Shown one piece after another: positions 10,746 to 63,379 of a stretch of 64,000 nt of DNA (position 1 is its first letter; every line of letters begins with the position of its first letter). Source of the DNA: Lentimicrobiaceae bacterium (GTDB taxonomy: Bacteria; Bacteroidota; Bacteroidia; Bacteroidales; JAGNHN01); the NCBI GenBank assembly GCA_018001695.1, contig JAGNHN010000009.1, positions 18,528 through 82,527 of the forward strand. Reading direction: 5' to 3'. Made by a program: the position numbers and the translations under genes. The notes beneath the pieces are model-generated. The model was given only the letters and a program-made list of their open reading frames with translations. It was not told where the DNA came from and searched no databases.

Positions 10746-10894
10746 ATCGGCGATCTTAAAGGGGGTTTCTACAAATGTCGGCAAAAAAACACCCTGATCC
10801 TACCATGGGACCTCGCAGTTTTACCGGATTTAACCAAAACTTAGCTTCTGGATGCTGGCAAAAGTCCTGTAATTCTTATCATTAGCCAGTGAAT

Positions 10895-38885: not shown

Positions 38886-41878
38886 GGTTGCCCTGTTGCG
38901 GGTTCCCGGCCTTCTTTGTAGATAACACCCAGGTTACGTTTACCATCGATCTTGACAACCAGCGGCTGTGAAAAACGCACATGGCGCAGGAATTCATCTT
39001 CGTAAACTGCAGGCTGAGCCTTCAGATAATCCACATCATAATGCCCGTCACGTATATATGGGTTGATGGTAAAATATCCTACCCTGAAAGACGTGAGGTT
39101 TTGAAAGAAATGCGTTCCCTGGCTGGGGTCAATGCGGTAATTCTCCAGGCTGGATTCGATGATTACCCGAGCTCCGGAAATATGTGGCCACTTGACCGGG
39201 ATCCCAAGCCATGGGTCGGAAGATCCCCAGCGGCCAGGCCCGATGATGATATACGGCCGCTTTTCCTTTAAGAACCGGTCGTTGAGTTCAAATACCCTGT
39301 CGGCGATCCTTGGACTTTGTGCGGGGTCAAATGCATCAGGCTTAACATACAGGATATCATAGATTTCGCGGTTAATACCATTGCCCAGCGCCGACTTGCA
39401 ATACACCACGGTTTCATCTATCCGGACCTGCTCCAGGTTTTCATCTATGGTTTCCTTATTATCAACCACAGGCCTTATTTGCAACAGATTAAAGATCCGG
39501 GGTTCTCCTTCCTTGCGGTTCAGCTCCATGGCAAACTCGATCTCGATGGGTTTGTTCATCTCCCTCTGACCTATCTCAAGACAGGTTTGCAGTATCTCCG
39601 CCAATGGGAAAACGTTATGGCTCAGGATATGCGAGAAGGTGATGAGCTTCTTTCCTTCATACTGGACACCATCCCGGATCATATGGTTGGCAAAGTCAAA
39701 GGTAGAGGCCACATGCTTCAGGGACCCATCGCCTTCTGCTTCTGCGATGCGCAGTTGCATCAGGTTGATACCATCATCGATGCATGGATAAAAGGCGCCG
39801 GCATCCAGGTTGAGCGCGAAAAAAGTCTTCTGCGTCTCCCGAAGCGCCATTTCCGGATTGGAAAGCTGCAGCACCTTACGCGGATATTTTGGAGAAAAAC
39901 GCAGCGTCTGCCCGCCATCCACGATGTATTTACCAAGACCGAATGCAATATTGACGATGCCATCCTCGGGGCGTTCCGGGTGAATGGGGTAGAAATTGAT
40001 GGACCTTGCAACCCCGCTGATCGTTGGATAAAAACGGTTACCGTACTGCCATCCAATGACTTCCTGCAGGACGATGGCCATCTTTTCCTCATCGATCACA
40101 TTTGAAGTCGCCGACATATATGCTTTGGACGCTTTGAAGAAGGCTGAAGCATAGACACTTTTGATGGCATTGCTCAGCATCTCGATCATCAGGCGCTCCT
40201 CATTGCGGATATTAGGAATCATATACGTCGAATATATCCCTGCAAACGGCTGATAGTGACTATCTTCCAGGAGACTCGACGAACGGATTGCAATAGGATT
40301 GCTCACCACCGTGATAAACGTATACAGGTCTTCATGAATCCTGAAAGGCAGGCGGGCCTGGATGAAATGCTGCAGTATTTCCTCATCCGGTGTATCCCCC
40401 AGCGCTACCTTGTACAGGTTGTTCTCCTCCATGAATTCATCGAAGATATCTGTACACAGCACCACTGTCTTGGGAGTGGAGATAAGCGTGCCTTCGAAGC
40501 GGCTGAAGAGCTGATTCCGTTTAATGAGAGAATCCAGGAAGGCGAGTCCGCGCGCCTTACCACCAATACTGCCATCACCGATGCGGGTAAAGCTGAGGTA
40601 TTCATCGAAGCGCTCACGGTTGAACTCTGCAATCACACCCCTCGCCTTGTTGAACCTGAAGTTCGCGATCGCATCAAAAAGGTAACGCCTCACCTCATCC
40701 AGGTCCCTGAAGTCTTCGGGCCTTAATTCCTTGAACAGGCGGGCAAGGGGAAAGACAGCACGGGCATTGAGCCAGCGTGAGAAGTGATTTCGTGAGATGT
40801 GGTAAAAAAGTACGTCATCCGGGATATCGAAAATGGTTTCCTGCAGGGATTTCAGATCGGATGCCCTGGCCACCTCGCGGTTCGAAACCGGATCCACAAA
40901 CACGAAATCCCCGAAGGCAAAATGTTCACGGATATAATTCCTCAGTTCAATGGATAATGTCTTGCTGTTTTTATTGATAAATCCAACCCCCATTTCCCTG
41001 GCCCTTCCTGCCATTTCATCCTCCGAAGACTGCAGGAGGAATGGTATAAAAGCGTCATCAGCTTTGACCTTCCGGCATAAGCGAAGCCCGGCCTCCTTGT
41101 CTTCATAACCGTTGCGTTTGTAAGACACATCGGAGATAATCCCGAGCAGGTTTTTCTTATACTTCTCATATAGTGCGATGGCTTCCTCATACTGAGTTGC
41201 GAGGACGATCTTGGGACGTCCCCGCATCCGAAGCATCTTCTGGTGCTCGTTCAGCCCCTCCGCCATGAATACCTTGCTCTGCTTGAAGATGATCTTGTAG
41301 AGATGGGGCAGATAGCTTGAATAAAAACGTATAGAATCTTCCACCAGCAACAGGATCTGTACCCCTTCCTCCTTGGCATCATGCTCCACATTCATCTTAT
41401 CCTCAATCAGCTTGATGATGGCCAGCAACAAATCTGTATTCCCAAGCCAGGAAAACACATAATCGATGGCCTGCATATCATCCTGGGCTGCCTTGATCTT
41501 GACTTCCCTGGAGAAAGGGGTCAGCACAACGATAGGTATGCGGGGGTATTTGTTCTTCATTCGCTTTGCCAGGGCGAAGGAATCTGAGTCCTCCGGACTT
41601 AGCATCGTAATGATGAGGTCTATCTTTTCCTCTTCCAGCACCTCAAAAGCTTCCATTTCGGTGTGCACCTGGATAAACTGTGGCGGGTACCGCAGGTTGA
41701 GGGCCACGTATTCGTTGAATATCTGCTCGTCGATGCGCCCGTCATCTTCCAGCATAAAGGCGTCATAAGCACTGGAAATCAGAAGCACATGATAGATCCG
41801 CTTCTTCATCAGGTTATGAAAGGCGGTGTCGGTGAAATAGACCTTATAAGGAGCAATAGGGTTGATCTTCGAAGCCAT
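38861..41878 (-). CDS. PEP/pyruvate-binding (PPDK_N) domain protein with an N-terminal pseudo-receiver + receiver domains; no phosphohistidine swivel domain seen
   Basis: The ORF runs 38861-41947. The likely start is MASKINPIAPYK at 41878. REC-like 1 is HVLLISS...IDLIITM...IPIVVLT (acceptor Asp missing). REC-like 2 is ILLLVED...LLGIISDVS...IPFLLQSS. PPDK_N motifs: GDGSIGGKARGLAFL, IAIRSSSLLEDS, QPFAGIYST. No GG.TSHAA motif found. Confidence 0.8.
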   Translation of the reverse strand: MASKINPIAPYKVYFTDTAFHNLMKKRIYHVLLISSAYDAFMLEDDGRIDEQIFNEYVALNLRYPPQFIQVHTEMEAFEVLEEEKIDLIITMLSPEDSDSFALAKRMKNKYPRIPIVVLTPFSREVKIKAAQDDMQAIDYVFSWLGNTDLLLAIIKLIEDKMNVEHDAKEEGVQILLLVEDSIRFYSSYLPHLYKIIFKQSKVFMAEGLNEHQKMLRMRGRPKIVLATQYEEAIALYEKYKKNLLGIISDVSYKRNGYEDKEAGLRLCRKVKADDAFIPFLLQSSEDEMAGRAREMGVGFINKNSKTLSIELRNYIREHFAFGDFVFVDPVSNREVARASDLKSLQETIFDIPDDVLFYHISRNHFSRWLNARAVFPLARLFKELRPEDFRDLDEVRRYLFDAIANFRFNKARGVIAEFNRERFDEYLSFTRIGDGSIGGKARGLAFLDSLIKRNQLFSRFEGTLISTPKTVVLCTDIFDEFMEENNLYKVALGDTPDEEILQHFIQARLPFRIHEDLYTFITVVSNPIAIRSSSLLEDSHYQPFAGIYSTYMIPNIRNEERLMIEMLSNAIKSVYASAFFKASKAYMSATSNVIDEEKMAIVLQEVIGWQYGNRFYPTISGVARSINFYPIHPERPEDGIVNIAFGLGKYIVDGGQTLRFSPKYPRKVLQLSNPEMALRETQKTFFALNLDAGAFYPCIDDGINLMQLRIAEAEGDGSLKHVASTFDFANHMIRDGVQYEGKKLITFSHILSHNVFPLAEILQTCLEIGQREMNKPIEIEFAMELNRKEGEPRIFNLLQIRPVVDNKETIDENLEQVRIDETVVYCKSALGNGINREIYDILYVKPDAFDPAQSPRIADRVFELNDRFLKEKRPYIIIGPGRWGSSDPWLGIPVKWPHISGARVIIESSLENYRIDPSQGTHFFQNLTSFRVGYFTINPYIRDGHYDVDYLKAQPAVYEDEFLRHVRFSQPLVVKIDGKRNLGVIYKEGREPATGQPQGGVITT

Positions 41879-42039
41879 AGGTAGTAATACTGTCTGAAGT
41901 TGAATACCGGATACCAATGTTACGTTAAAAATGCTTTGGTTCCGCATGTTCTGCAGAACAGCATGATACCAATCTTAACACCCTTTAACTTGCTCATTCC
42001 TTCTGAAAAAAGTACATTTGGGTGTTCATTCGAACCGGC

Positions 42040-49798: not shown

Positions 49799-49871
49799 AT
49801 CATTCTAACATTATTTCATTCAACGGAACCTGAAGTTAAACCCACCAGTGTTCCTTCAAAAGAAAAACACC

Positions 49872-51053
49872 ATGAACACAAACGACAAGGGATTCAACAC
49901 CAAGCTGATACATGCTGGTATTTTTGAAGATGAATTTGGAAGTGCCACCGTTCCGATCTACCAGACATCCACCTTCAAATTCAGAAGCGCCCAGCATGGC
50001 GCTGACTGCTTTTCGGGTGCCAGTGACGGATACATCTATACCCGCATTGGAAACCCAACCATTCGTGCTTTTGAGCGCAACATTGCCGAGCTAGAAGGAG
50101 GCTATGATGGTATAGCAACCAGCAGCGGCATGGGCGCAATCACCAGTGTTTATATGGCGCTGCTGAACGGTGGTGACCATATCATCAGTTCAGGTGCTGT
50201 GTATGGCCCGGCGCGGGGTGTCCTGGAACAGGATTTTTCCCGTTTCCATGTCGAGGCCAGCTTTGTTAACACAGCAAATCTGGATGAAATTATCAGTGCT
50301 ATCCGGCTAAATACCAGGGTGTTATATATTGAAACTCCGGCCAATCCGACGATGGAGATCACCGACATCGCTGCCTGCGCAGACCTGGCCAAAAAGCACG
50401 GCCTCACCCTGGTCGTCGATAACACATTCTGTTCTCCCTTTCTCCAAAACCCGCTGGACCTGGGTGCTGATGTGGTGCTGCACTCCATCACCAAATTCAT
50501 CAATGGCCATGCGGATATCGTCGGGGGTGTAATTGTGACAAGGGAAGAAGCGCTTTACAGGAAGATCCGTCATTCTATGGTCTATATGGGATGCAATATG
50601 GATCCGACCCAGGCTTTCATGGTTTTACGCGGTGTCAAAACACTGGCATTGCGCATGGAGCGCGCTCAGGCCAATGCCATGAAAGTTGCCGGCTTCCTGG
50701 AATCCCATCCCAAAGTAGCATGGATCAAGTACCCGGGACTTACTTCCCATCCCCAATATGATCTGGCTTGTCGCCAGATGCGTGGATTTGGCGCTATGAT
50801 GAGCTTCGGACTTAAGGGCGGATACGATGCAGGTAAGAAGCTCATGGACAACGTGCATCTTGCTCTGCTGGCGGTATCCCTGGGTGGCGTTGAAACCCTC
50901 ATCCAGCATCCGGCTTCGATGACCCATGCCGGTATCAGCAAGGAGCACAAGTTGGCGGCAGGTATCACGGATGATCTGGTGCGTTTCTCCGTCGGGATTG
51001 AAGACGTAGAAGATATTATTAAAGACTTAAATCACGGATTATCAATGGTATAA
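49872..51053 (+). CDS. PLP-dependent Cys/Met-metabolism enzyme, most like methionine gamma-lyase
   Basis: The track ORF starts at GTG 49848. ATG 49872 gives MNTNDKGFNTKLIHAG. Motifs: PIYQTSTF, GADCFSG...YIYTRIGNPT, PLP-lysine motif HSITKFINGHAD. MGL versus cystathionine gamma-synthase or OAH sulfhydrylase cannot be settled by eye. Confidence 0.75.
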   Translation: MNTNDKGFNTKLIHAGIFEDEFGSATVPIYQTSTFKFRSAQHGADCFSGASDGYIYTRIGNPTIRAFERNIAELEGGYDGIATSSGMGAITSVYMALLNGGDHIISSGAVYGPARGVLEQDFSRFHVEASFVNTANLDEIISAIRLNTRVLYIETPANPTMEITDIAACADLAKKHGLTLVVDNTFCSPFLQNPLDLGADVVLHSITKFINGHADIVGGVIVTREEALYRKIRHSMVYMGCNMDPTQAFMVLRGVKTLALRMERAQANAMKVAGFLESHPKVAWIKYPGLTSHPQYDLACRQMRGFGAMMSFGLKGGYDAGKKLMDNVHLALLAVSLGGVETLIQHPASMTHAGISKEHKLAAGITDDLVRFSVGIEDVEDIIKDLNHGLSMV

Positions 51054-51064
51054 TAATAAAAAAA

Positions 51065-52426
51065 ATGAAAACCACAGATGTTTTAATTATTGGCGGCAGT
51101 GCTGCCGGGATGGTGGCTGCCGTGACCGGCAAATCATCATGGTCAGACAAAAGGTTCACACTCGTTAAAATGCATAAAGAGGTGATGGTGCCCTGTGGAA
51201 TCCCCTACATTTTCGGTACGCTCGACTCCAGTATGCTCAACATTATGCCTGTCGATACTATACTGGCCAAAGCCGGTGTGGAATCCATCGTAGATGAGGT
51301 CACTGACATTGACAAAGAGGCCAAGACAGTTAAGTTGAACAGTGGAGAAGAGATTCACTATGAGAAACTGGTCATTGCTACTGGTTCTATCCCTGTGCTC
51401 CCGAAATGGCTAAAAGGGACCGACCTGGATCATGTTTTTATAATCCCTAAAGACAAAACTTACCTGGATGATATGAAGGATAAGCTGCACGGGCTTAAGA
51501 AAGTCATTGTGGTAGGCGCCGGATTTATCGGGGTGGAATTCTCAGATGAGTTAAACAAGTCGGGGCATGAAGTGATTCTGGTAGAGAAGGAAGACAGCAT
51601 CCTCTTCTCAGCCTTTGACGATGAGGTAGCCGAAAGAATTGGTGAAATCCTGAAAAACAGGGGAGTCAAAATCATCACCGGGAAAGGTATCGCTGAAATC
51701 CAGGGCAAAACCAAAGTAGAATCGGTATTACTGGAAAATGGAGAACCCCTCCAGGCAGATGCTGTGATTCTGTCCATGGGATACAAGCCCAATACAGAAC
51801 TGGCCATCAAATCAGGGATTATGATGGATGAAAGCGGATTTATCGCTGTAGATGAATACATGCGCACGCATCACAAGGATATTTTCGCCATTGGAGACTG
51901 TGCCCAAAAGCGTGATTTTGTGACACGTAAAAGGGTGCCCACAATGTTAGCTTCAACAGCCTGTGCCGAAGCCAGGGTTGCAGGCATGAATCTTTTCAAT
52001 ATCCATGTTGTAAAAACCTTCAGCGGTACCATCAGCATCTATTCAACTGCGATAGGGGATCATGGATTTGGCACGGCCGGTTTGATTGAACGTCGCGCAC
52101 TCGAGGAGGACATTGCAGTAATAACAGGCACTTTCGAAGGGGTAGACCGTCATCCGGGCAACTTACCGGATACACATAAACAGATGGTGAAATTGATCGT
52201 TGCCAAATACTCGGGTGTCATTATCGGAGGAGAGGTAATCGGAGGATTAAGTGCAGGTGAATTAACCAATGTGATCGGCCTGGCTATCGAAAACAGGATG
52301 TCCGTGAACTCCTTGCTCATTTCCCAGATTGGCACACATCCCTGTCTGACCGCATCTCCGGCTGCCTATCCCCTGATCAAAGCTGCAGAGATCATTTCCG
52401 CTAAGCTACGAAACAACCACTCATAA
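51065..52426 (+). CDS. FAD-dependent pyridine nucleotide-disulfide oxidoreductase (NADH oxidase / CoA-disulfide reductase-like, single redox Cys)
   Basis: 453 aa. DVLIIGGSAAGMVAA (FAD), VPCGIPYIF (the family's conserved redox Cys context), KKVIVVGAGFIGVEFS (NAD), FAIGDCA. Confidence 0.8.
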   Translation: MKTTDVLIIGGSAAGMVAAVTGKSSWSDKRFTLVKMHKEVMVPCGIPYIFGTLDSSMLNIMPVDTILAKAGVESIVDEVTDIDKEAKTVKLNSGEEIHYEKLVIATGSIPVLPKWLKGTDLDHVFIIPKDKTYLDDMKDKLHGLKKVIVVGAGFIGVEFSDELNKSGHEVILVEKEDSILFSAFDDEVAERIGEILKNRGVKIITGKGIAEIQGKTKVESVLLENGEPLQADAVILSMGYKPNTELAIKSGIMMDESGFIAVDEYMRTHHKDIFAIGDCAQKRDFVTRKRVPTMLASTACAEARVAGMNLFNIHVVKTFSGTISIYSTAIGDHGFGTAGLIERRALEEDIAVITGTFEGVDRHPGNLPDTHKQMVKLIVAKYSGVIIGGEVIGGLSAGELTNVIGLAIENRMSVNSLLISQIGTHPCLTASPAAYPLIKAAEIISAKLRNNHS

Positions 52427-52536: not shown

Positions 52537-54057
52537 TTACGACCCCGGATAATGAATTCCGGCACCCGGTCCCAGCGGAATGCCCGCAAGTGCCCAGCCG
52601 ATCAACAACAGCGACCACAGCACAAAGAAGACCAGTGAATATGGTAACATGGTGGATATCAGAGTCCCTATGCCCGCCTTTTTGTCATATTTCTCGAAAT
52701 AGACAATAATAAGGGCAAAGAAACTCATCATGGGTGAGATGATATTGGTAACGCTGTCACCAACCCTGAAGACAGCCTGGCTCAGCTCGGGTGAATATCC
52801 TAACAACATGAACATCGGGATAAAGACCGGCCCGAGGATGGCCCATTTCGCTGAAGCACTGCCCATAAAGAGGTTAATGAAACCTGAAAGCATGACAAAC
52901 ATCAGCAATAGTGGCACCAGACCTATGTCTGCTGACTGAAGAAAATCGGCTCCTTTGATGGCAATGATCAGTCCCAGGTTGCTCCATTTAAAATACGCCA
53001 CGAACTGGGCTGCAAAGAAGACGAGCACCAGGAATGAGGCCAATGCCTTGAAACTCTCTACCATGCCCTTCACCACATCACTGTCATTCCTGAACTTCCC
53101 GGTGATGGCACCATAGATGATCCCCATGATGGCCGCTGTGACAAAGAGGAAGGCAATAAATCCCTTCAGCAAAGGTGACTTGAGCAAGGACTGCTCAGGA
53201 CCCCTCAAAAAGCCATCCTGCGGAATCAGCCCCAGCAGGATAATGCCGATGAGCAGGATAGAAGCAATGACCACCCACCGCAAACCCTTACGCTCCTGTG
53301 TATTCAGGTTTTCCATTGTCTCAGGCTGAACATCACCCTTATAGGTTCCCAGCCTTGGTTCAATAAACCGATTCGTGACCCATGTGCCCGCGGCCGCTAT
53401 CACAAACGTACTCACAGCCATGAAATAGTAATTGGCAGTGGGAAGCACATAATAATCCGGATCCAGGATACGGGCTGCTTCTGTGCTCAAGCCGGCCAAC
53501 AACGGATCAATGGTTCCGATAAACACATTGGCGCTGAACCCACCTGAAACGCCGGCGAAAGCGGCAGCAAGTCCTGCCACCGGATGCCGTCCGACCGCAT
53601 GAAAAATGATACCGCCCATGGGGATAATCAAAACATAGCCCAGATCGGAAGCTGTGTTGGAGATGATACCGGCAAATACGATGACAAAGGTGATCAGCTT
53701 CTTAGGTGACTTCAGCACCAGCAACCGTATGGCTGCACTGATCAGTCCGCTGCTCTCCGCTATACCGATACCCAGCAGCGCCACCATGACAATTCCAAGG
53801 GGCGCAAAACCGGTGTAATTGTCCACCATCTCCAGAATGATACGATGTATCCCGTCTCTTGATAGAAGGTTCTCCGTATGTATCCATTCGCCGGTGGCAG
53901 GATGGATCGCACGCCAGTCGAGCCAGTGGCCCAGGGCAGAGAATGCCAGTGCAAGCAAGGCCAGGATGGCAAACAAACTGGCCGGATGGGGCAAGGCATT
54001 GCCTCCCCTTTCGACCATGTTCAGAAAAGAGGATGTAAGGCTTCTTTTTACTTTCAT
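52537..54057 (-). CDS. AbgT-family transporter (p-aminobenzoyl-glutamate/antimetabolite efflux family)
   Basis: 506 aa, polytopic. N-terminal FLNMVERGGNALPHPASLFAILALLA is typical of AbgT. Confidence 0.85.
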   Translation of the reverse strand: MKVKRSLTSSFLNMVERGGNALPHPASLFAILALLALAFSALGHWLDWRAIHPATGEWIHTENLLSRDGIHRIILEMVDNYTGFAPLGIVMVALLGIGIAESSGLISAAIRLLVLKSPKKLITFVIVFAGIISNTASDLGYVLIIPMGGIIFHAVGRHPVAGLAAAFAGVSGGFSANVFIGTIDPLLAGLSTEAARILDPDYYVLPTANYYFMAVSTFVIAAAGTWVTNRFIEPRLGTYKGDVQPETMENLNTQERKGLRWVVIASILLIGIILLGLIPQDGFLRGPEQSLLKSPLLKGFIAFLFVTAAIMGIIYGAITGKFRNDSDVVKGMVESFKALASFLVLVFFAAQFVAYFKWSNLGLIIAIKGADFLQSADIGLVPLLLMFVMLSGFINLFMGSASAKWAILGPVFIPMFMLLGYSPELSQAVFRVGDSVTNIISPMMSFFALIIVYFEKYDKKAGIGTLISTMLPYSLVFFVLWSLLLIGWALAGIPLGPGAGIHYPGS

Positions 54058-54167: not shown

Positions 54168-57100
54168 TCAGGACCTGGTCAGCGCAGCCTGGAATTCCAT
54201 CTCAAACCGCTGACTCAGATGATTGCAGCCATGGGCAAACAATGGACCCGGCGTATCTTCCGAAGTCAGGAACAAAGGCATGAGCGTAGCGTGATATTCA
54301 GGTAAGAGCGACATCACTTCCGATCTCACTGTCAGCACATCACCTTCTGCTTTCAAGCCCAATGCTGCCATGATCCCCATGATCTGTGCAGGCCCATCCA
54401 CGCTTACCTGAGTCGGCAATACCGCATCGAACTCCTGGATAATCCGCTGTCCATTCGTGAAGGATCCCCCCATTTCAGCAGGATAAACCGCCGGCAGGAT
54501 GAGATCCGCAAATTCTGCAGTAGGTGTTATAAAATGATCCTGCACCACCACAAATTCAGCCTGCTTCATCCATTTCTTCACCCGCTCAGGGTCCAGGGCC
54601 GTCCCAACGGGATCTTCCCCAAAAATGAACAGCTGCCTGAACAACCCGCCATCCAGGCCTTGCAGGAGATCGTTGACAGGACCTGGCAAGGCAGGGATAT
54701 TCCAGGTGGCCTTCATCCTGGCTTCATTGCCGTTAACCGGCATTCCACCAACATGGAGATATGGATCCACACCCATGTCGAAAAGCCCGTGACTGTTGTT
54801 GTTTTCCTTGAGACCTATCAGACCGTTGGCTGTCTTACCCAGACGGCCTGTGATCAATGCCAGGTTGTACAACTCTATTACGGCCGCCGCACTCATGCCC
54901 TTTTCTGAGAAGAGTATGATGGCCCGTTGTTCCTGGCTGTATTCCCTTGCGAATGTCAGTAAATGGTCTGTACAGCAGGCGCCGGACTTTTCAAAGAGTA
55001 CATCGAAATCCTCCGCCAGCAGGGACTCTCTATATGTCTCGAATCCTTCTGTATTTCCATCAAGGAAAAGCTTGTTCTCCAGCCCATTCGCCAGGATGTA
55101 GTGGTTTACGGCACGCAGGAACCAGTAATAATGGGTAGCGCGGATCACCTGGTCCACCTTATGCCCCATGCGACTGCCTTCTTCCAGATTACTGATCATC
55201 CCCACCTTTACATGATGGCGCTGCCGGGCCATATTGACCATAAAACCCGCTACACCGTGGTCCTCATGCAATTCCGTGCCCATGATCCAAACATGATTGC
55301 AGTGCCTGAGATCCGACAGGAAAGCATTGCGACGACTCGTAAGACCGTAGCCTTCCCCTCTGCCCAGGTAATGAAAACTGCCGACATTGTTGGTCCCTGA
55401 CCCGGCCCTGGCCAGTTTCTGCACCAGGTACTGCTCCTCATTGGTGAGGCGCGCCCCGGCAAAGAAAGCAGACTCATCGGGTGCTACGGCACGTATCTTT
55501 TTCGCGATGAGATCAAAAGCCTCATTGAAGCTGATCTCTTTCCATGCTTCATTTTCTTTGAGCAGGGGTTTCTTCAGCCGGACAGGATCATTATAGTGGC
55601 GGTATCCAAACTTGCCCATGCGGCAGAGGTTGCCTTGCTGATTCACCTGCCCATTTGCACCATGTACCTTCATCACGAAATGTCTTTTGTGCTGCAGTTC
55701 AAGGGTACAGCCTACTGAGCAGTAAGTACAGATCGTCACGCCCTTGTCCAGTTTGACAGGGCCTGGTTTAAAGGGGACATTCTCAGAGATGGCAGCGGTT
55801 GGACAGGCTGAAATGCACAAACCGCAGGATTCGCAACTTGTTTCAAGCAGGGAATTTCCCATGGAAGGTGCCACGAAGGTATCAAACCCACGGTTTATCA
55901 ATCCCAGCGCCTGAGCACCCACGACCTCCTGGCATACACGGATGCAGCGGTTACAGAGTATACATTTGTTATTGTCTATCTCCACATAGGGATGCCGGAA
56001 ATCGACAGAATAATCCCTGTAGCTGCCCTCATAATGCTTTTGCTCTGCACCGTATTCTTCCGATAATCGCTTGAAATCACAATCATAGTAGGCTGTGCAC
56101 CCACATTCCAGACAGCGTGTCGTTTCTTTCAATGCGACCAAAGGACTTTCATAGCCCAGCTCAACCTCTTTGAAATTATTTCTCCTTGCAGGATCCAGGG
56201 TTGGCATTTCCTCTCTTTCCTGGGGGAGATAATGGCCGGCATATTCTGTCGGATGCTGTTCCCTGAAATTATCCTTGCGACTGATGAACTCCTTCTTTGG
56301 GGGTGTGATGGCCTGACCACTCAGAAACTGGTGGCAGGAATGAGCGGCCAGCCGGGCTTGTCCGATGGCCTGAATGAGGGTGGCCGGTCCGGTCACCCCA
56401 TCGCCTGCAGCAAACATACTGTCGATACCTGTTTGCAGCGTCTCAGGATTGGCATCGATATCCCCCCAGCGATTGACTTTCAGCTCACCCTGCCGGGTGT
56501 GGCCATTGATATCGTTGAGGAAATTCACATCCGTCTTCTGACCGATGGCTGCCAGGATGATATCGACTTCCACATCAAACTCCGAACCCTTGACAGGGAC
56601 GGGGCGGCGACGGCCGGAAGCATCCGGTTCGCCCAGTTCCATCCGCAGACAGGTCACTGATTTCACCTCACCGGCCTTGCCCTTGTTCACCATCACCGGG
56701 TTGGTAAGGAACATATATTCCACGCCCTCCAGTTTGGACTCGTGGATCTCGATAGGGTTTGCAGGCATCTCCGCCTCGGTGCGGCGGTAGATGACGTATA
56801 CTTTCTCAGCCCCACAGCGCAGGCTGGTCCGGCAACAGTCCATAGCCGTATTACCACCGCCCACCACGGCAACTTTTTTGCCACGAAAGTCCATCTTTAC
56901 ACCCGTCACCTCCATCTCTTTCAGGAAATCAATACCGGAGTAGACGCCTTTCGCATCTTCGCCCTCGGCTCCCAGAAGGGTACCGGTCTGGGATCCGATG
57001 GCCAGGACCACAGCATCGTACTTTTCCTGCAGATCAGCGTAGTGCAGGTTGTCGCCCAGCCTTTGGTTGTAATGGATCTGCACACCCAGTGCGCTGATTT

Positions 57101-57863
57101 GATCCACTTCCTTCTGGAGCACATCATTCGGCAAGCGGTATTCAGGGATACCATAACGCAGCCATCCACCGGCAGCCGGGGCAGCTTCAAAGACATCTAT
57201 GGCATGCCCCTCTTTGCGAAGGAAAAAGGCTGCTGACAATCCGCCTGGACCTGCACCAATAATGGCCACGCGCTTGCCTGTGTCAGGCTTAACGACAGGG
57301 CGGTATGGGTGACCCGAGAAAAGGTCCTGGTCTGCTGCAAATCTCTTGAGATAATCGATTCCGACCGGGTGTCCTTCCTGCAGAAGGTTGCGGCGGCATG
57401 CTACCTCGCAAGGCCTGACACAGACACGTCCGCATACGGCAGGGAAAGGATTGGTTTCCTTGATCACCTCCACAGCTTCATGGTACATCCCTTTCTCGAT
57501 GTAGGAGATGTAACCCTGCACATCGACACCGGCAGGGCATGTAAGCCGGCAGGGAGCAGCACAGTCTGCATAATGGTTGCTGGCCATCAGATCCAGGGCC
57601 GCCTTACGGGCAACCCTCACCTTCTCGTTTTCTGTCCAGATCTTCATGCCCTCCCCGATGCGGGTAGAGCAGGAAGGCTGCATGCCTCTCATGCCTTCCA
57701 CTTCCACGACACAGACAAAGCAAGAGGAAAAAGGCTCTAAACGCGGATCATGACACAAGGTGGGTATTTGAATGCCATTTCGCCTGGCCAGCTCGAGAAT
57801 GGTCTCCCCTTTCTGGCCGGTTACTGCCTTACCGTTGAGTATGACATTGAGATTATCCGACAT
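54168..57863 (-). CDS. Large FeS-flavoprotein subunit: [2Fe-2S] ferredoxin + GltD-like NAD(P)H/FAD module + NuoG-type FeS clusters + degenerate molybdopterin-oxidoreductase (MopB) domain
   Basis: 1231-aa uninterrupted ORF. The N-terminus is ILNGKAVTGQKGETILELARRNGIQIPTLCH...CFVCVVEV. GltD motifs: CRLTCPAGVDVQGYI, NPFPAVCGRVCVRPCEVAC, VAIIGAGPGGLSAA, VVGGGNTAMDC, MFAAGDG. FeS motifs: CILCNRCIRVCQEV, CESCGLCISACPT, CTYCSVGCTL. The MopB-like remainder has GTNNVGSFHYLGRG and no Cys/Sec-His dyad. Confidence 0.85.
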   Translation of the reverse strand: MSDNLNVILNGKAVTGQKGETILELARRNGIQIPTLCHDPRLEPFSSCFVCVVEVEGMRGMQPSCSTRIGEGMKIWTENEKVRVARKAALDLMASNHYADCAAPCRLTCPAGVDVQGYISYIEKGMYHEAVEVIKETNPFPAVCGRVCVRPCEVACRRNLLQEGHPVGIDYLKRFAADQDLFSGHPYRPVVKPDTGKRVAIIGAGPGGLSAAFFLRKEGHAIDVFEAAPAAGGWLRYGIPEYRLPNDVLQKEVDQISALGVQIHYNQRLGDNLHYADLQEKYDAVVLAIGSQTGTLLGAEGEDAKGVYSGIDFLKEMEVTGVKMDFRGKKVAVVGGGNTAMDCCRTSLRCGAEKVYVIYRRTEAEMPANPIEIHESKLEGVEYMFLTNPVMVNKGKAGEVKSVTCLRMELGEPDASGRRRPVPVKGSEFDVEVDIILAAIGQKTDVNFLNDINGHTRQGELKVNRWGDIDANPETLQTGIDSMFAAGDGVTGPATLIQAIGQARLAAHSCHQFLSGQAITPPKKEFISRKDNFREQHPTEYAGHYLPQEREEMPTLDPARRNNFKEVELGYESPLVALKETTRCLECGCTAYYDCDFKRLSEEYGAEQKHYEGSYRDYSVDFRHPYVEIDNNKCILCNRCIRVCQEVVGAQALGLINRGFDTFVAPSMGNSLLETSCESCGLCISACPTAAISENVPFKPGPVKLDKGVTICTYCSVGCTLELQHKRHFVMKVHGANGQVNQQGNLCRMGKFGYRHYNDPVRLKKPLLKENEAWKEISFNEAFDLIAKKIRAVAPDESAFFAGARLTNEEQYLVQKLARAGSGTNNVGSFHYLGRGEGYGLTSRRNAFLSDLRHCNHVWIMGTELHEDHGVAGFMVNMARQRHHVKVGMISNLEEGSRMGHKVDQVIRATHYYWFLRAVNHYILANGLENKLFLDGNTEGFETYRESLLAEDFDVLFEKSGACCTDHLLTFAREYSQEQRAIILFSEKGMSAAAVIELYNLALITGRLGKTANGLIGLKENNNSHGLFDMGVDPYLHVGGMPVNGNEARMKATWNIPALPGPVNDLLQGLDGGLFRQLFIFGEDPVGTALDPERVKKWMKQAEFVVVQDHFITPTAEFADLILPAVYPAEMGGSFTNGQRIIQEFDAVLPTQVSVDGPAQIMGIMAALGLKAEGDVLTVRSEVMSLLPEYHATLMPLFLTSEDTPGPLFAHGCNHLSQRFEMEFQAALTRS

Positions 57864-57893
57864 GGTTGTATATCGTTGTATTATAAATATTCA

Positions 57894-59672
57894 TTAATTG
57901 ACATTGATGGCTTCGAAACGGCAGCGGTTATAACAGTCACCGCAACGAATACAAAGCTCCTGGTCGATGAGATGGGGCTGCTTGCGCTCACCGCTGATGG
58001 CGTTCACCGGACACTTCACTGCGCAAACCCTGCAGCCGGTGCATTTGTCTGCCACTATCTCATAGGTAAGCAGCGTCTTGCAAACCTTGGCAGGGCATTT
58101 CTTGTCCCGTATATGTGCTTCGTACTCATCCCTGAAGTAGCGCAGGGTGGTCAGTACCGGATTGGGAGCCGTCTGTCCCAGTCCGCACAACGAATTATCC
58201 TTAATAAGATATGCCAGCTCCTCCAGCATGTCAATATCGCCCTCCCTGCCGTTACCGGCTGTGATGCGATCCAGGATCTCCAGCATGCGCTTGGTGCCGA
58301 TACGGCAAAAGGTGCACTTTCCGCAGCTTTCCTTCTGGGTAAAATCCAGGAAGAACCTTGCCACATCTACCATGCAGGTGGTTTCATCCATGACCACCAT
58401 CCCTCCGGAACCCATGATGGCACCGGTGGCATTTACACTGTCATAGTCGACAATGGTATCTGCCAGATACTCCGGGATACAGCCCCCGGATGGGCCACCC
58501 ATCTGCACGGCTTTGAACCGCTTATCCCCTTGGATTCCACCGCCCAGCTTAAAGATCACATCCCTCAGCGTGATTCCCATGGGCACCTCCACCAGTCCTG
58601 ATCGCTTGATCTTTCCGGCCAGGGCGAACACCTTGGTTCCTCTTGATTTTTCAGTCCCATAGCGGGCATAGGCTTCAGGACCATGATAAATGATCCAGGG
58701 TATGTTGGCCCATGTTTCGACATTGTTGATATTGGTCGGTTTGTTCCACAAACCTGCCTCAGCCGGGAATGGGGGTCTCTTTCTGGGCATCCCACGCTGC
58801 CCTTCCACCGAGGCGATAAGGGCAGTTTCTTCCCCGCATACGAAGGCCCCCGCACCTTCCTTGATGTGGATATCAAAATGAAAATTCTCTATTCCCAGTA
58901 TGTCATTCCCCAGGTAGCCACGCTTTCTTGCCTGACCCAGGGCGATATCTAAACGCTTGATAGCCAACGGATACTCAGCCCGGCAATAGATAACGCCACC
59001 GGTAGCACCAATGGCGTAGGCACCGATGATCATTCCTTCCAGTACTGCATGCGGATCACCTTCCAGCAACGAGCGGTCCATGAACGCGCCAGGGTCACCT
59101 TCGTCCGCATTGCAGATGACATATTTTTCATCACTGGCATATCCTGCAGCAAAGCGCCACTTCAGACCGGTTGGAAAGCCTCCCCCTCCCCTGCCTCGCA
59201 ATCCGGCATCAATGACCATCTGGATGACCTTGTCACGGGGGATGCCATCTTCGGCGATCTTGCGCAGAGCGGCATACCCCTGCCGCTGTTCATACTCCTC
59301 CAGCGACTCAGGATCAATATACCCGCAATTGCGCAAGGCGATCTTCACCTGCGCACCCAGAAACGCCTGATCTTCAGTCTCGAAGAGGTCCGACTTCACC
59401 ACGAGGTCCCGGACAGGCTCATGATGCACCACATGGCGGTCCAGTATCTGGATCACTTTCTCCTCATCGACATTACCGTATAGAAAGGCACCATTCTCAT
59501 CAATCACTTCCACCAGGGGTTCACGGTAGCACATCCCGATACAACTCGTTTTGTGCAGTTCAAAATCCAGGTGCTCCGATTGGCGAATGGCTTTGATCTT
59601 TTCAAATGTCTTACCGGCGCCGGCAGCAATACCGCAACTGCCCAGACCGACCACTACTTTCGTCTTTTGCAT
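57894..59672 (-). CDS. NuoF/HydB-type NADH-binding FMN-FeS subunit with N-terminal thioredoxin-like [2Fe-2S] and C-terminal 2x[4Fe-4S] domains
   Basis: The ORF runs 57894-59717. The likely start is MQKTKVVVGLGSCG at 59672, 13 nt after the nuoE-like stop. Motifs: GRGGGGFPTGLKW (FMN/NADH), ESCGKCTFCRIG (N3), CTGCRVCAVKCPVNAI, CIRCGDCYNRCRFEAI. Confidence 0.9.
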   Translation of the reverse strand: MQKTKVVVGLGSCGIAAGAGKTFEKIKAIRQSEHLDFELHKTSCIGMCYREPLVEVIDENGAFLYGNVDEEKVIQILDRHVVHHEPVRDLVVKSDLFETEDQAFLGAQVKIALRNCGYIDPESLEEYEQRQGYAALRKIAEDGIPRDKVIQMVIDAGLRGRGGGGFPTGLKWRFAAGYASDEKYVICNADEGDPGAFMDRSLLEGDPHAVLEGMIIGAYAIGATGGVIYCRAEYPLAIKRLDIALGQARKRGYLGNDILGIENFHFDIHIKEGAGAFVCGEETALIASVEGQRGMPRKRPPFPAEAGLWNKPTNINNVETWANIPWIIYHGPEAYARYGTEKSRGTKVFALAGKIKRSGLVEVPMGITLRDVIFKLGGGIQGDKRFKAVQMGGPSGGCIPEYLADTIVDYDSVNATGAIMGSGGMVVMDETTCMVDVARFFLDFTQKESCGKCTFCRIGTKRMLEILDRITAGNGREGDIDMLEELAYLIKDNSLCGLGQTAPNPVLTTLRYFRDEYEAHIRDKKCPAKVCKTLLTYEIVADKCTGCRVCAVKCPVNAISGERKQPHLIDQELCIRCGDCYNRCRFEAINVN

Positions 59673-59685
59673 AGCTATGCCTGTT

Positions 59686-60222
59686 TCATTCCATGGTTCC
59701 GTTTTCCGCCATTTCACGTATGCGGATGTCCTTGACGATGCGAACAGCCTCCTTGCCGGTCAGCTTGCCATAGGTCTCATCGCCAATCATCATCACCGGT
59801 GCCAGGGAACAGCATCCCAGGCAGGCCACCGATTCAATGGTGAAGAGCTTGTCATCCGTTGTACCCCCATCGGGAATGCCGAGTGCTTCGGTCAGGGCTT
59901 CGCTGATGGCATTGGCATTCTGCACATGACAGGCAGTTCCATGACAAACCTTGATGATGTGTTTACCCACCGGATGCAGCCTGAACTGGGCATAAAAGGT
60001 TGCTACACCATACATCTCACTAAGGTTGAGACCCGTATGCCTCGAGAGATATATAAATACGTCACGTGGAATATAGCCGTAAATATCCTGGGCGCCCTGC
60101 AGCAGTGGAATAAGGTTTCCCTTTTTATTCCTGTATTTCTGAATCAGCGGATCCAGTAGATGAAGGTCGATCCCGGGTTCCGCCTGAGGACGCTCTCGGG
60201 AATCTATCCTGACAACACGCAT
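59686..60222 (-). CDS. NuoE/HydC-type [2Fe-2S] thioredoxin-like subunit
   Basis: 178 aa. LIPLLQGAQDIYGYIP, VCHGTACHV, ESVACLGCCSLAPVMMI. Confidence 0.9.
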   Translation of the reverse strand: MRVVRIDSRERPQAEPGIDLHLLDPLIQKYRNKKGNLIPLLQGAQDIYGYIPRDVFIYLSRHTGLNLSEMYGVATFYAQFRLHPVGKHIIKVCHGTACHVQNANAISEALTEALGIPDGGTTDDKLFTIESVACLGCCSLAPVMMIGDETYGKLTGKEAVRIVKDIRIREMAENGTME

Positions 60223-60444
60223 ATAAGTGAGATTAAGTGTGAAGTTATTTTCTGAAGGGGGATAAAAGTATGGAAAATGCTTGCAGCCATCAGCAACAGA
60301 TACGTATTTATACTTAGTCCAAATTATCAGAAACGAGACTTAGCAGGCGGGCCAGGGATCCAAAGCGGGCATGTAATTATTCCCGGATCGGGAAGGAGGT
60401 TTATAGAAATCAACTACATTTGTTCCTCTCAAAAACATAGAGAT

Positions 60445-61572
60445 ATGACGATAGGTATCCTAAAGGAACCGGTAGGAGAAAACCGCGTGTCCTTGCTTCC
60501 CGAAGGTGCAGCCAATGTTATCAAGCTGGGCACCGATGTGTTACTGGAGACAGGTGCCGGCGTTCATGCCCGGGCGCATGACAAGGTCTATGAACAGGCT
60601 GGGGTGCGCATCGTTTCCCGCAAAGAAGTGATCCAGGGTTCTGACATCCTGTTGTCGGTACAGCCTCCCGACCAGGCCAGCCTTGAGCTGATGCGCGAGG
60701 GCCAGGTGCTGATGGGTGTCTATAACCCCCTGGTTGAATTTGACCTGGTGAAACGTATGGCATCTGCCGGACTGACCGTATTCAGCCTCGACACCATTCC
60801 CCGCATCACCCGTGCCCAGTCGATGGATGTGTTATCCTCCATGTCGACCGTATCAGGTTATAAAGCTGTGATAGATGCTGCCCATAACCTGCCCTATTTC
60901 TTCCCTATGCTCATGACGGCGGCCGGGACCATCAAACCGGCCAGGGTCCTTGTCCTGGGTGCCGGCGTGGCAGGACTGCAGGCCATCGCAACATCCCGTA
61001 AACTGGGTGCCATCGTGCATGCCTTCGACGTGCGCTCAGCGGTCAAGGAACAGGTAGAAAGCCTGGGCGCCAAGTTCGTACAAGTCGAAGGGGCCACCGA
61101 AGATGCCGCTGCCGGAGGTTATGCCGTGGAACAAACAGATGAATTCAGGCAGAAACAGGCTGAAGCCATTCACAACAGGGCTGTTGAATCCGACGTCATC
61201 ATCGCGACTGCCCAGATCCCTGGCAAACGGGCACCCATCCTGATCCGCAAAGAAACCGTGGAAGCCATGGGGCCGGCTTCGGTGATCATCGACCTGGCTG
61301 CCAGCACGGGCGGCAATTGCGAGCTTACCCGAGACAATGAAGTAGTGGTGCATAACCAGGTCCGCATCATCGGCAAATCCAATTACGCCAGTGATATGCC
61401 CTCCGACGCCAGTAAAATGTATGGTAACAATGTTATCAACTTCCTCAAACTGATCGTCGACAAAGAAGGCAAGCTGTTCCTGAACTTCGAAGATGAGATC
61501 GTTCAGGGCACCTGCACCACCCATGCCCGGGAAGTCGTTAACCCCAGGGTCAAAACATTGATGAGCCTGTGA
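60445..61572 (+). CDS. pntAA: NAD(P) transhydrogenase alpha subunit, soluble dI part
   Basis: The track ORF starts at 60277. ATG 60445 gives MTIGILKEPVGENRVSLLPEG. Alanine-dehydrogenase-like fold, VLVLGAGVAGLQAIATSRKLGA, IIATAQIPGKRAP. Confidence 0.9.
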   Translation: MTIGILKEPVGENRVSLLPEGAANVIKLGTDVLLETGAGVHARAHDKVYEQAGVRIVSRKEVIQGSDILLSVQPPDQASLELMREGQVLMGVYNPLVEFDLVKRMASAGLTVFSLDTIPRITRAQSMDVLSSMSTVSGYKAVIDAAHNLPYFFPMLMTAAGTIKPARVLVLGAGVAGLQAIATSRKLGAIVHAFDVRSAVKEQVESLGAKFVQVEGATEDAAAGGYAVEQTDEFRQKQAEAIHNRAVESDVIIATAQIPGKRAPILIRKETVEAMGPASVIIDLAASTGGNCELTRDNEVVVHNQVRIIGKSNYASDMPSDASKMYGNNVINFLKLIVDKEGKLFLNFEDEIVQGTCTTHAREVVNPRVKTLMSL

Positions 61573-61609
61573 TCAACCACTATTATGAACCTTTCAAAAC
61601 ATATGCCAT

Positions 61610-61918
61610 ATGGAAAGTGTACTTGAGTTCTTTTACCTCCACCGCGAGGCCATTTTCATCGTGATCCTGTCCATCTTCCTCGGGGTGGAAGTCATCTCCC
61701 ACGTCCCGGCCATCCTCCACACCCCCCTGATGTCGGGTGCCAACGCCATCCATGGCGTCGTCATTATCGGTGCCATCATCGTGATGGGGCATGCCAAGGA
61801 CAGCCTTTCCATGATCCTGGGCTTTCTGGCCGTTGTGCTGGGCACCCTGAATGTGGTGGGAGGATTTGTCGTCACCGACCGCATGCTTGAGATGTTCCGG
61901 AAGAAAAACAAGAAATAA
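61610..61918 (+). CDS. pntAB: NAD(P) transhydrogenase alpha subunit, membrane part
   Basis: 102 aa, 3 TM. TPLMSGANAIHGVVIIGAI, LNVVGGFVVTDRMLEMF. Confidence 0.88.
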   Translation: MESVLEFFYLHREAIFIVILSIFLGVEVISHVPAILHTPLMSGANAIHGVVIIGAIIVMGHAKDSLSMILGFLAVVLGTLNVVGGFVVTDRMLEMFRKKNKK

Positions 61919-61927
61919 GGAGAAGCC

Positions 61928-63379
61928 ATGAACGAGATTCTTACTTTCACCAAAAACATACAGTTCTCCCTGGGCGACGCCACCCTGGAGATTTCCTATG
62001 TTATCGCCAGTATCCTGTTTATCTTCGGACTGAAGATGTTAAGCCATCCTGACACAGCCCGCAAAGGCAACATCTGGGCTGCCATCGGCATGGGACTGGC
62101 TATCCTGGCTACCCTGCTGTTTCACCGCATGGATGGAGAACCCATTGGCAACCTGGGATTCATCATCACGGCCATCGTATTGGGAACCATCATTGGCTGG
62201 GTCGTCGCTATGAAGGTGAAGATGACGGCCATGCCACAGCTGGTGTCCTTGTTCAATGGGATGGGTGGTGGCGCCGCAGCCCTTATTTCCATCATTGAAT
62301 TCCAGCACCTGGCCCGCCTGGGCGAGGCTGTTTCGATGGGCAGCGGACTGATGCTGGCCATTTTGCTGGGACTGATGATCGGCAGCGTCTCCTTTGCAGG
62401 ATCCATGATTGCCTTCGGCAAGCTGGACGACCGCATCGGCGACATCCGTAACCCTATTATGCGCTACATCAATATCGGCTTCCTCGTCGTTCTGATCGGA
62501 TTCATCGTCTATATCATGACACGGGGAACCATCATGCCCGAGAGCATGCTGCCGGTGCTGTACATTATGTTTATCATCGCCCTCATCTACGGGGTGAGCT
62601 TTGTCATGCCCATTGGCGGGGCCGATATGCCTGTGGTCATCTCCCTGCTGAACTCATTCACCGGAGTTGCTGCAGCCATGGGTGGGTTTTTGTATAACAA
62701 CCAGGCCATGCTCACCGGCGGTATCCTGGTCGGATCAGCCGGGACCATCCTGACCATCCTGATGTGCAACGCCATGAACCGCTCCCTCTTCAATGTCATT
62801 GTGGGTGCCTTTGGTGGTAGTGCTGGGGGCGTGGACAAGGAAAAAGGAGCTGTCAAAGAGATCAGCATTTCCGATACCGCTGTTCTGATGGCTTACAGCC
62901 GGAAGGTTGTAATCATACCGGGTTACGGACTGGCTGTTGCACAGGCCCAGCACCTCTGTCATGAGCTGGAGCGTATTCTGGAGGAAAAAGGTGTTGAGGT
63001 AAGCTATGCCATCCATCCCGTGGCCGGCCGTATGCCTGGGCATATGAATGTTTTGCTGGCCGAGGCGGATGTTGCTTATGAAAAACTGGTGGAGATGGAT
63101 GATGCGAATCCCGATATGCCCAATACCGATGTGGTGGTGGTGATCGGGGCCAACGATGTTGTCAATCCTGCCGCCGAAGACGATCCTTCCAGCCCCATCT
63201 ACGGCATGCCCATCATCAAGGCTTACCAAGCCAGGAATACCATTGTGATGAAGCGCGGCATGGGTATGGGTTATGCGGCCATCGAGAATTACCTCTTCTT
63301 CAGTGACAAGACACGTATGTTGTTTGGCAATGCCAAAGACAGTCTGCAAAAACTCGTCACCGAGTTAAAAAGCCTCTGA
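61928..63379 (+). CDS. pntB: NAD(P) transhydrogenase beta subunit
   Basis: 483 aa. A polytopic N-terminal part, then dIII: VVIIPGYGLAVAQAQH, AIHPVAGRMPGHMNVLLAEA, VVVIGANDVVNPAA. Confidence 0.93.
   Translation: MNEILTFTKNIQFSLGDATLEISYVIASILFIFGLKMLSHPDTARKGNIWAAIGMGLAILATLLFHRMDGEPIGNLGFIITAIVLGTIIGWVVAMKVKMTAMPQLVSLFNGMGGGAAALISIIEFQHLARLGEAVSMGSGLMLAILLGLMIGSVSFAGSMIAFGKLDDRIGDIRNPIMRYINIGFLVVLIGFIVYIMTRGTIMPESMLPVLYIMFIIALIYGVSFVMPIGGADMPVVISLLNSFTGVAAAMGGFLYNNQAMLTGGILVGSAGTILTILMCNAMNRSLFNVIVGAFGGSAGGVDKEKGAVKEISISDTAVLMAYSRKVVIIPGYGLAVAQAQHLCHELERILEEKGVEVSYAIHPVAGRMPGHMNVLLAEADVAYEKLVEMDDANPDMPNTDVVVVIGANDVVNPAAEDDPSSPIYGMPIIKAYQARNTIVMKRGMGMGYAAIENYLFFSDKTRMLFGNAKDSLQKLVTELKSL

Follow-up and report, generated by a model that had tools for sequence, protein, structure and literature searches.

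Our analysis of a 64,000-nucleotide stretch of contig JAGNHN010000009.1 (hereafter, the window), which belongs to an uncultured Bacteroidales bacterium and carries proteins with C-terminal tails of the type IX secretion system (T9SS), indicates that a three-gene operon on its minus strand very probably encodes a transhydrogenase of the NfnABC/Stn type (Nfn-Bfu), i.e., a Bacteroidales representative of a family of electron-bifurcating enzymes that is already known and has solved structures. This assignment is based on the conservation of ligand residues and on the fact that the top solved relatives of all three subunits are the same three characterised NfnABC/Stn enzymes, those of Sporomusa ovata, Caldicellulosiruptor saccharolyticus and Thermococcus sibiricus. 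The original prediction, made for this operon from the DNA letters and their translations, had also proposed a Bfu-type, NfnABC/Stn-like enzyme, and this reading is supported by the best solved relatives of each subunit as well as by the Bfu-specific features present in the B and C subunits. Its additional premise, that no characterised enzyme was known in which a GltD module precedes a NuoG/MopB remnant within a single polypeptide, proved to be incorrect: StnC (8oh5) and the C. saccharolyticus NfnA (9bov) both have this architecture, and both have been purified, assayed and solved by cryogenic electron microscopy.

The predicted three-gene organisation was confirmed by translation, which gave open reading frames (ORFs) of 178, 607 (counted from a GTG codon) and 1231 amino acids (Table 1), and the gaps of 13 and 30 nt between the genes are consistent with a single operon. 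All motifs quoted in the original prediction (NPFPAVCGRVCVRPCEVAC, VAIIGAGPGG, VVGGGNTAMD, CTYCSVGC and GTNNVGSFHYLGRG) were found in the translated products. For the NuoF-like gene the most likely start, as judged from alignments, is the ATG located 13 nt past the stop codon of the upstream gene rather than the GTG, since alignments with solved homologues begin no earlier than residue 20 of the longer, 607-aa ORF. The gene order C-B-A was compared across a set of 48 related genome loci (L001-L048; 48-71% identity), all from metagenome-assembled genomes labelled Bacteroidales or other Bacteroidota; it is kept in 40 of them, while in the other eight at least one of the two small-subunit genes was not detected.

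The NuoE-like (C) subunit contains the [2Fe-2S] domain attributed to it earlier, as evidenced by a strong Pfam match (2Fe-2S_thioredx, 2.4e-48) and by four ligand cysteines (Cys93, Cys98, Cys134 and Cys138) aligned with C74/C79/C115/C119 of the T. sibiricus NfnC; its best solved relatives are 9bov_C (8e-54, 185 bits), 8oh5_A (7e-49) and 9n5u_C (2e-48). The NuoF-like (B) subunit, in which Pfam detects Complex1_51K (7.6e-47), NADH_4Fe-4S (2.4e-36) and two Fer4 stretches, gives nearly equal phmmer matches to the B subunits of the three solved enzymes (9bov_B, 1.7e-265; 9n5u_B, 3.7e-265; 8oh5_B, 1.7e-263; 879-885 bits) and shows approximately 65% identity (here and below, subunit identities were calculated from target sequences transcribed out of HMMER printouts). 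HydB proteins of NiFe- and FeFe-hydrogenases score lower than all three of these (at most 759 bits). The FMN/NAD(H) site is present in the form of a glycine-rich loop, GLRGRGGGGFPTG, as are the ligands of the B1 [4Fe-4S] cluster (C450/C453/C456/C496) and the Bfu hinge zinc site (B2, His/Cys3), where H520/C433/C526/C531 correspond to H524/C437/C529/C534 of the T. sibiricus NfnB. According to the work on the latter enzyme, the hinge histidine is retained by nearly every Bfu-family B subunit (PMC12018979, PMC9304861). Of the two extras that the original prediction ascribed to this subunit as typical of bifurcating enzymes, the C-terminal 2x[4Fe-4S] domain (clusters B3 and B4, the ferredoxin site) is borne out by the Fer4 matches and by eight cysteines at 544-584 aligned with the three solved enzymes. 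The thioredoxin-like domain at the N-terminus (B5 site) is supported by alignment with StnB/NfnB residues 2-100 and an identical cysteine pattern (Cys13/44/48), its Pfam match being below threshold (23.0 bits vs. a cut-off of 24.8), while its supposed [2Fe-2S] content is uncertain. The B5 metal is [2Fe-2S] in the S. ovata StnB and zinc in its counterparts from C. saccharolyticus and T. sibiricus (PMC11829005, PMC12018979); because the same cysteine pattern is found in enzymes holding either metal and thus does not reveal it, the site of the window protein could hold either of the two.

The large (A) subunit consists, from the N-terminus, of a [2Fe-2S] domain, a GltD/NfnL-like FAD/NADPH module, a ferredoxin-like dicluster and a MopB-like domain. 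Pfam matches and motifs agree with the earlier description of this protein, which listed a plant-type [2Fe-2S] cluster, a complete GltD-like FAD/NAD(P)H module, NuoG-type clusters and a CTYCSVGC cluster. Among the domain models suggested for verification, Fer2_4, Pyr_redox_2 and Molybdopterin matched, and NADH-G_4Fe-4S_3 was not detected in the large subunit by the Pfam scan, the presumed reason being that this domain is interrupted by the inserted GltD module. Near full-length phmmer alignments were obtained with the S. ovata StnC (8oh5_C, 1172 aa; 4e-225, query 5-1190 vs. target 4-1108) and the C. saccharolyticus NfnA (9bov_A, 1178 aa; 5e-224, query 7-1054 vs. target 6-1017), followed by the archaeal NfnA (9n5u_A, 1e-173), with 41-45% identity over the parts printed in the alignments. 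The GltD-like module matches NfnB/NfnL structures (4ylf_B, 1e-96; 5jca_L, 1e-83) and displays GAGPGG as its motif for FAD and GGGNTA (GxGxxA), with YRR after it, for NADP(H). A GxGxxA motif, as well as the flanking motifs HxxxCxxxCxxxCP and CxxCxCx5C, have been described for StnC (PMC7483475); the former flanking motif is represented here by His97/Cys101/Cys105/Cys109-Pro, and a CxxxCxxxC motif by Cys148/152/156. Every cluster-binding cysteine within StnC residues 4-867 is matched by a cysteine in the aligned window protein, in which Lys173 and Arg243 correspond to StnC K170 and R239. The FAD-proximal cluster of StnC has an unusual ligand in Lys170, a residue strictly conserved among StnC proteins (PMC10482914). 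In a family alignment of 121 sequences (the window large subunit and 120 Bacteroidales homologues) the cluster cysteines, Lys173, Arg243 and the HxxxCxxxCxxxCP and CxxCxCx5C motifs are all invariant.

The C-terminal part of the large subunit, the size of which is corrected here from roughly 530 to approximately 525 residues (aa 707-1231), resembles domains I-III of formate dehydrogenases (FDHs) and retains the MopB [4Fe-4S] site (Cys712/715/719/747). Its alignment with the Thermoanaerobacter kivui FdhF (7qv7_S) failed to reveal the intact Cys/Sec-His-Arg site that would mark a true FDH: Cys139-His140 is replaced by Gly834-Arg835, Arg333 by Lys1019, and Lys50, which follows the fourth cluster cysteine, by Met749. 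In the alignment with a Sec-containing F420-dependent enzyme (9t1s_L) the Cys/Sec-His dyad falls in a deletion. The catalytic identity of these positions is taken by us from the E. coli FdhH (SeCys140, His141, Arg333 and Lys44). Across the 121 family members the Cys/Sec position is occupied by N, G, D or S and never by Cys, the Arg position by K (115 sequences) or R (6), and the Lys position by Y, F or M. Domain IV (Molydop_binding, PF01568) was not detected in the large subunit by the Pfam scan, and approximately 75 residues follow in the protein after the one that pairs with FdhF residue 477. For aa 700-1231, a confident AlphaFold2 model (pLDDT, 87.8; pTM, 0.88) has the predicted fold expected for domains I-III without the cap; in Foldseek comparisons FDHs rank first (8rqz_C and 1fdi, template modelling (TM) score 0.81 normalised to the query), and the score normalised to FdhH is 0.61-0.63, with only 61-63% of FdhH covered. 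The model also superposes on 9bov_A (TM 0.78) and 8oh5_C (TM 0.75). The MopB part of the Bacteroidales family is less conserved than the GltD part (mean identity 49% vs. 73%; invariant positions 27/471 vs. 141/465), which fits a non-catalytic role. Taken together, the replacement of all four catalytic residues, the missing PF01568 and the partial modelled fold argue, in agreement with the original prediction, that a molybdenum or tungsten (Mo/W) active site is unlikely.

This picture closely matches StnC (1172 aa), where a GltD domain is fused into a NuoG domain and the C-terminal FdhF-like part is catalytically inactive (PMC10482914), as well as the C. saccharolyticus NfnA (1178 aa, 9bov), which is built like StnC (PMC11829005). 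The clusters of the FdhF-like part of StnC are regarded as an off-pathway evolutionary remnant; nevertheless, deletion of this part gave no functionally active complex, and replacing the cysteines of either of its clusters abolished tetramer formation (PMC10482914). By analogy, the FDH-like domain of the window protein most likely serves as an off-pathway scaffold or oligomerisation domain with a [4Fe-4S] cluster.

The NfnABC/Stn enzymes of S. ovata, C. saccharolyticus and T. sibiricus have all been purified and shown to be tightly coupled transhydrogenases (PMC7483475, PMC9304861). On the strength of this precedent, we infer a similar cofactor occupancy and a bifurcating mechanism for the window enzyme. 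In this mechanism, the GltD/NfnL-like module would use its non-bifurcating FAD for hydride exchange with NADP(H), and the Fe-S clusters of the large subunit would form a relay along which electrons move one at a time to B1 and FMN in the NuoF-like subunit. There, FMN and B1, along with the mobile [2Fe-2S] domain of the NuoE-like subunit, would split or merge electron pairs between NAD(H) at FMN and ferredoxin at the C-terminal 2x[4Fe-4S] domain. In fermentative Bacteroidales the reaction probably runs in the direction NADH + reduced ferredoxin + 2 NADP+ -> 2 NADPH, supplying NADPH for biosynthesis. Stn forms a D2 tetramer of heterotrimers and shows tight NADH/reduced-ferredoxin-dependent NADP+ reduction (PMC10482914, PMC7483475), and a comparable oligomeric state may be expected of the window complex.

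Several observations count against a straightforward assignment to the NfnABC/Stn family. First, our literature search did not find a characterised Bacteroidales NfnABC but only a one-line mention in Schut 2022, where an Nfn-type BfuB is recorded in Bacteroidetes (PMC9304861). Second, neither the large nor the B subunit reached the cut-off of any NCBIfam equivalog model (for the small subunit the NuoE model barely passes, with 144.3 bits vs. 141). Third, Cys114 of StnC is absent from the window protein, which has Val115 at this position (V or I in all 121 family members), and an additional invariant cysteine, Cys144, is located four residues ahead of the CxxxCxxxC motif, where StnC and the C. 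saccharolyticus NfnA have Ile and the T. sibiricus NfnA has Leu. To judge from the alignments, this swap may change how the FAD-proximal [4Fe-4S] cluster is ligated. In Stn, Cys114 lies near cluster C7 and its replacement (C114A) led to a loss of approximately 50% of activity; this residue is not strictly conserved, being Val or Ile in some homologues (PMC10482914). Fourth, the MopB remnant has nearer relatives, in sequence and in fold alike, in true FDHs than in the corresponding parts of StnC and NfnA (182.6 bits to 7qv7_S vs. 142.3 to StnC and 100.8 to NfnA), and keeps the FDH blocks GTNNV and FGEDP...VVQD...ADLILP. This likeness and these blocks are the grounds for suggesting that the FDH-like domain is more than a scaffold, e.g., that it binds a nucleotide- or pterin-like ligand, has a regulatory role or provides docking for a partner (perhaps a rubrerythrin-like protein), or else that the protein is a less-decayed intermediate between Fdh-Bfu and Nfn-Bfu enzymes, with Val115/Cys144 retuning the FAD-proximal cluster. 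We consider these readings unlikely. The simplest reading of the closeness to FDHs is an unequal decay of a common remnant.

Another alternative is that the third substrate or partner of the complex is not simply the NADP+/NADPH pool but a rubrerythrin-like peroxidase, sulfur or oxygen, an idea initially put forward for the archaeal Nso. A rubrerythrin/ferritin-like gene (approximately 150 aa; PF02915, 8e-15; e.g., at 11699-12244 of L007) follows the large-subunit gene on the same strand at a distance of <300 nt in 23 of 40 related loci and may represent a fourth member of the operon there. Moreover, the original description of the Thermococcus litoralis homologue was that of an NADPH-dependent sulfur/oxygen oxidoreductase (PMC10482914, PMC7483475), and Bfu enzymes of a rubrerythrin type have been proposed by Schut et al. 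(PMC9304861). However, a tblastn search of the window found no rubrerythrin-like gene, the next gene instead being that of an AbgT-family transporter, located directly downstream of the large-subunit gene (52537-54057, minus strand); all purified homologues, the S. ovata, C. saccharolyticus and T. sibiricus enzymes among them, are tightly coupled transhydrogenases; and Nso itself may act as Nfn, according to Kremp et al. (PMC7483475). A dedicated partner of this kind is, hence, quite improbable for the window enzyme.

We see even less reason to expect that the resemblance to Bfu enzymes is superficial and that the complex acts as an NADPH:NAD+ or NADPH:ferredoxin oxidoreductase without bifurcation. 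Bifurcation as such is unreadable from sequence, the B5 site could hold either of its two metals, and the Val115/Cys144 difference is close to the FAD-proximal cluster. On the other hand, the minimal "flavobicluster" (FMN site, B1 cluster and C1 cluster) is complete, the hinge histidine and the ferredoxin-binding dicluster domain are both present, and the B subunit shares about 65% of its residues with two proven bifurcating enzymes, all of which makes this alternative very unlikely. Finally, a true Mo/W FDH of the Fdh-Bfu type that has gained an NADPH module, to which the top matches of the MopB part (7qv7_S, 1e-52; FdhH, 8e-46; 8rqz_C and 1fdi), its retained FDH blocks and the database name of its homologues would point, can be practically dismissed in view of the substituted His, Arg and Fe-S Lys, the ligand position with no Cys/Sec nearby and the ORF with no in-frame TGA, the missing domain IV and relaxed constraint, and the failure of Stn, despite the annotation of StnC as a formate dehydrogenase, to show any formate:methyl viologen activity (PMC7483475).

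Table 1. Features of the NfnABC/Stn-like operon and its flanking intergenic region (nucleotide positions refer to the window; aa, residues of the large subunit).
Feature	Position	Strand	Basis and remarks
nfnC/stnA-like gene (BfuC, NuoE-type, 178 aa)	59686..60222	-	C-terminal thioredoxin-like [2Fe-2S] domain; Pfam and PDB relatives
nfnB/stnB-like gene (BfuB, NuoF-type, 592 aa)	57894..59672	-	Most likely start at ATG; mechanical ORF extends to GTG at 59717; Pfam and phmmer
nfnA/stnC-like gene (BfuA, 1231 aa), NADP(H)-binding large subunit	54168..57863	-	Near full-length phmmer alignments and Pfam
Fer2_4	aa 4-79		Pfam, 2.6e-18
Fer4_20	aa 100-180		Pfam, 1.1e-18
Pyr_redox_2	aa 198-503		Pfam, 1.4e-30
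Fer4_Nqo3	aa 625-691		Pfam, 2.7e-08
Molybdop_Fe4S4	aa 710-758		Pfam, 7.4e-10
Molybdopterin	aa 762-1152		Pfam, 3.7e-26
N-terminal plant-type [2Fe-2S] domain	57627..57854 (aa 4-79)	-	Cys37/48/51/65, invariant in 121 family members
GltD/NfnL-like module	56313..57575 (aa 97-517)	-	Fer4_20 and Pyr_redox_2; NfnB/NfnL PDB matches
CxxCxCx5C and ferredoxin-like 2x[4Fe-4S] domain	55785..56114	-	Cys584/587/589/595; Cys634/637/640/644, Cys677/680/683/687; Fer4_Nqo3; each Cys aligned with one in StnC and NfnA
FDH-like remnant of MopB domains I-III	54171..55745 (aa 707-1231, ~525 aa)	-	Pfam, FDH alignments, AlphaFold2, Foldseek
Val115/Cys144 swap	57519-57521 (aa 115), 57380-57432 (aa 144-161)	-	Clade-wide
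Divergent intergenic region between operon and pntAA	60223..60444	.	Putative Bacteroidetes-type -7 box TACATTTG at 60415 (+) before pntAA; relaxed match only, TACTTTTA, at 60270 (-) before operon

In the genomic neighbourhood, Pfam identifies the genes of a proton-translocating NAD(P) transhydrogenase (pntAA-pntAB-pntB, 60445-63379, plus strand), which are divergent from the operon, so that two NADPH-supplying systems stand back to back in the window. As a candidate for a conserved functional link this adjacency was rejected: among the 48 related loci it is shared only by L045, which has the highest full-length identity of the large subunit (68%), and L012 has a fragment of pntB. The arrangement is a lineage-specific context and not functional evidence. 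The -7 boxes in the intergenic region (Table 1) are pattern matches from a regular-expression scan with a putative promoter function; a sigma-70 promoter scan gave counts near background, the sigma-70 model not being applicable to Bacteroidetes promoters. No RNA was matched in the window by Rfam (at the gathering threshold) or ARAGORN.

A different combination of transhydrogenases is observed in the related loci, where the Bfu-type operon is immediately preceded, in the same orientation, by the classical pair, with an NfnS-like (PyrK-type) gene in 11 of 33 loci and an NfnL-like gene in 15 of 33 (e.g., at 2836-3660 of L013 and 490-2334 of L009). The upstream NfnL-like protein combines Fer4_20 and Pyr_redox_2 with a CxxC-rich N-terminal extension, for which no significant zinc-ribbon match was found in Pfam; a related upstream protein of 291 aa has a weak double-zinc-ribbon match. 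The side-by-side presence of Nfn and a Bfu-type operon deserves attention because Stn and Nfn are almost mutually exclusive in acetogens (Kremp 2020, PMC7483475). In the window, tblastn detected neither an NfnS-like nor a separate NfnL-like gene, the GltD module of the large subunit being the sole NfnL-like match.

Beyond the AbgT-family transporter gene, the window contains genes for a PLP-dependent enzyme of Cys/Met metabolism and, after it, a pyridine-nucleotide-disulfide oxidoreductase with a dimerisation domain (49848-52426, plus strand). A 1028-aa protein (38861-41947, minus strand) combines a response-regulator receiver domain, the Pfam match of which is exactly at the gathering score (30.2 bits), with PPDK_N, and in 12 related loci a stricter tblastn recount places its homologues (37% identity) downstream of the operon and in the same orientation. 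It is preceded by a 622-aa protein (36516-38384, plus strand), in which an N-terminal cyclic-nucleotide-binding domain is fused to a class II fumarase/aspartase (Lyase_1 and FumaraseC_C). The T9SS C-terminal sorting domains are found in two giant, probably secreted proteins with LTD repeats (2228-5935 and 6258-10784, both on the minus strand), the second of which also contains PKD and dockerin domains. Another giant and probably secreted protein (2344 aa; 25133-32167, plus strand) has CARDB, MopE-type putative metal-binding motifs and a SprB repeat, with no match to a sorting domain.

Overall, the main value of this analysis is a correction, namely the identification of the operon product as an Nfn-Bfu/Stn transhydrogenase, the architecture of which was already known. 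Public names of the large-subunit homologues ("formate dehydrogenase major subunit", "molybdopterin-dependent oxidoreductase", "FAD-dependent oxidoreductase") do not include Nfn or Stn; more than 7,900 homologues are found at E <=1e-50 among the matches listed, a threshold that also admits partial relatives. Public annotation appears to conceal an enzyme that is widespread in anaerobic Bacteroidales, is linked to ferredoxin and supplies NADPH. The modest peculiarities of the Bacteroidales clade, such as (i) the Cys114-to-Val change with Cys144, (ii) a better-preserved FDH-like domain, and (iii) the occurrence of pntAB alongside in the window and, in related loci, of NfnSL on the upstream side or a rubrerythrin-like gene on the downstream side, might help to study how anaerobes combine several transhydrogenases.

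A side-by-side comparison with known systems places the window enzyme among the NfnABC/Stn complexes while revealing differences from each of them. With StnABC of the Firmicutes acetogen S. ovata (8oh5/8oh9; PMC7483475, PMC10482914), it has in common the three subunits, the gene order, K170 and R239, and StnC is collinear with the window large subunit almost throughout, including the truncated, catalytically dead FdhF-like domain. The large subunits are, however, only about 41% identical (vs. about 65% for B), and that of the Bacteroidales host is 59 aa longer; Cys114 of StnC is replaced by Val115, an extra invariant Cys144 is present, GTNNV is kept in the window and lost in StnC, and the position of FDH Arg333 holds Lys instead of the Arg of StnC. 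The NfnABC of C. saccharolyticus (9bov/9bp5, PMC11829005), a thermophilic Firmicute, gives the highest bit scores of the solved relatives for B (885), C (185) and aa 1-720 of the large subunit (5e-193), and has the same domain order and N-terminal cysteine pattern of the B subunit. Its differences include a MopB remnant much more diverged from that of the window (100.8 bits), Cys at the StnC-114 position and Ile at that of window residue 144, and a B5 site occupied by Zn. The B and C subunits of the T. sibiricus Nfn-BfuABC (9n5u/9n5v; PMC12018979, PMC9304861) are equally close to those of the window (3.7e-265 and 2.2e-48), its hinge site maps onto the window protein, and it shares Val at the StnC-114 position. 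Its NfnA, however, has only 963 aa, with a partial C-terminal domain and one cluster fewer, whereas the window large subunit is of the full-length bacterial form.

The relation to two further groups of enzymes is more distant. The classical NfnAB/NfnSL (4ylf, 5jca) performs the same overall reaction, and the GltD-like module of the window protein has a homologue in its large subunit (1e-96 and 1e-83), but its bifurcating FAD resides in NfnB/L, in contrast to FMN and clusters in BfuBC, and it consists of two subunits with no NuoE/F or MopB parts. The NAD-dependent and Bfu-type FDHs and FdhH/FdhF (6tg9, 7qv7, 1aa6) match the window enzyme in the fold and sequence of MopB domains I-III and in the NuoE/F-type partners, whereas the window protein has lost the Cys/Sec-His pair, the catalytic Arg, the Fe-S Lys and domain IV, and has a GltD module inserted.

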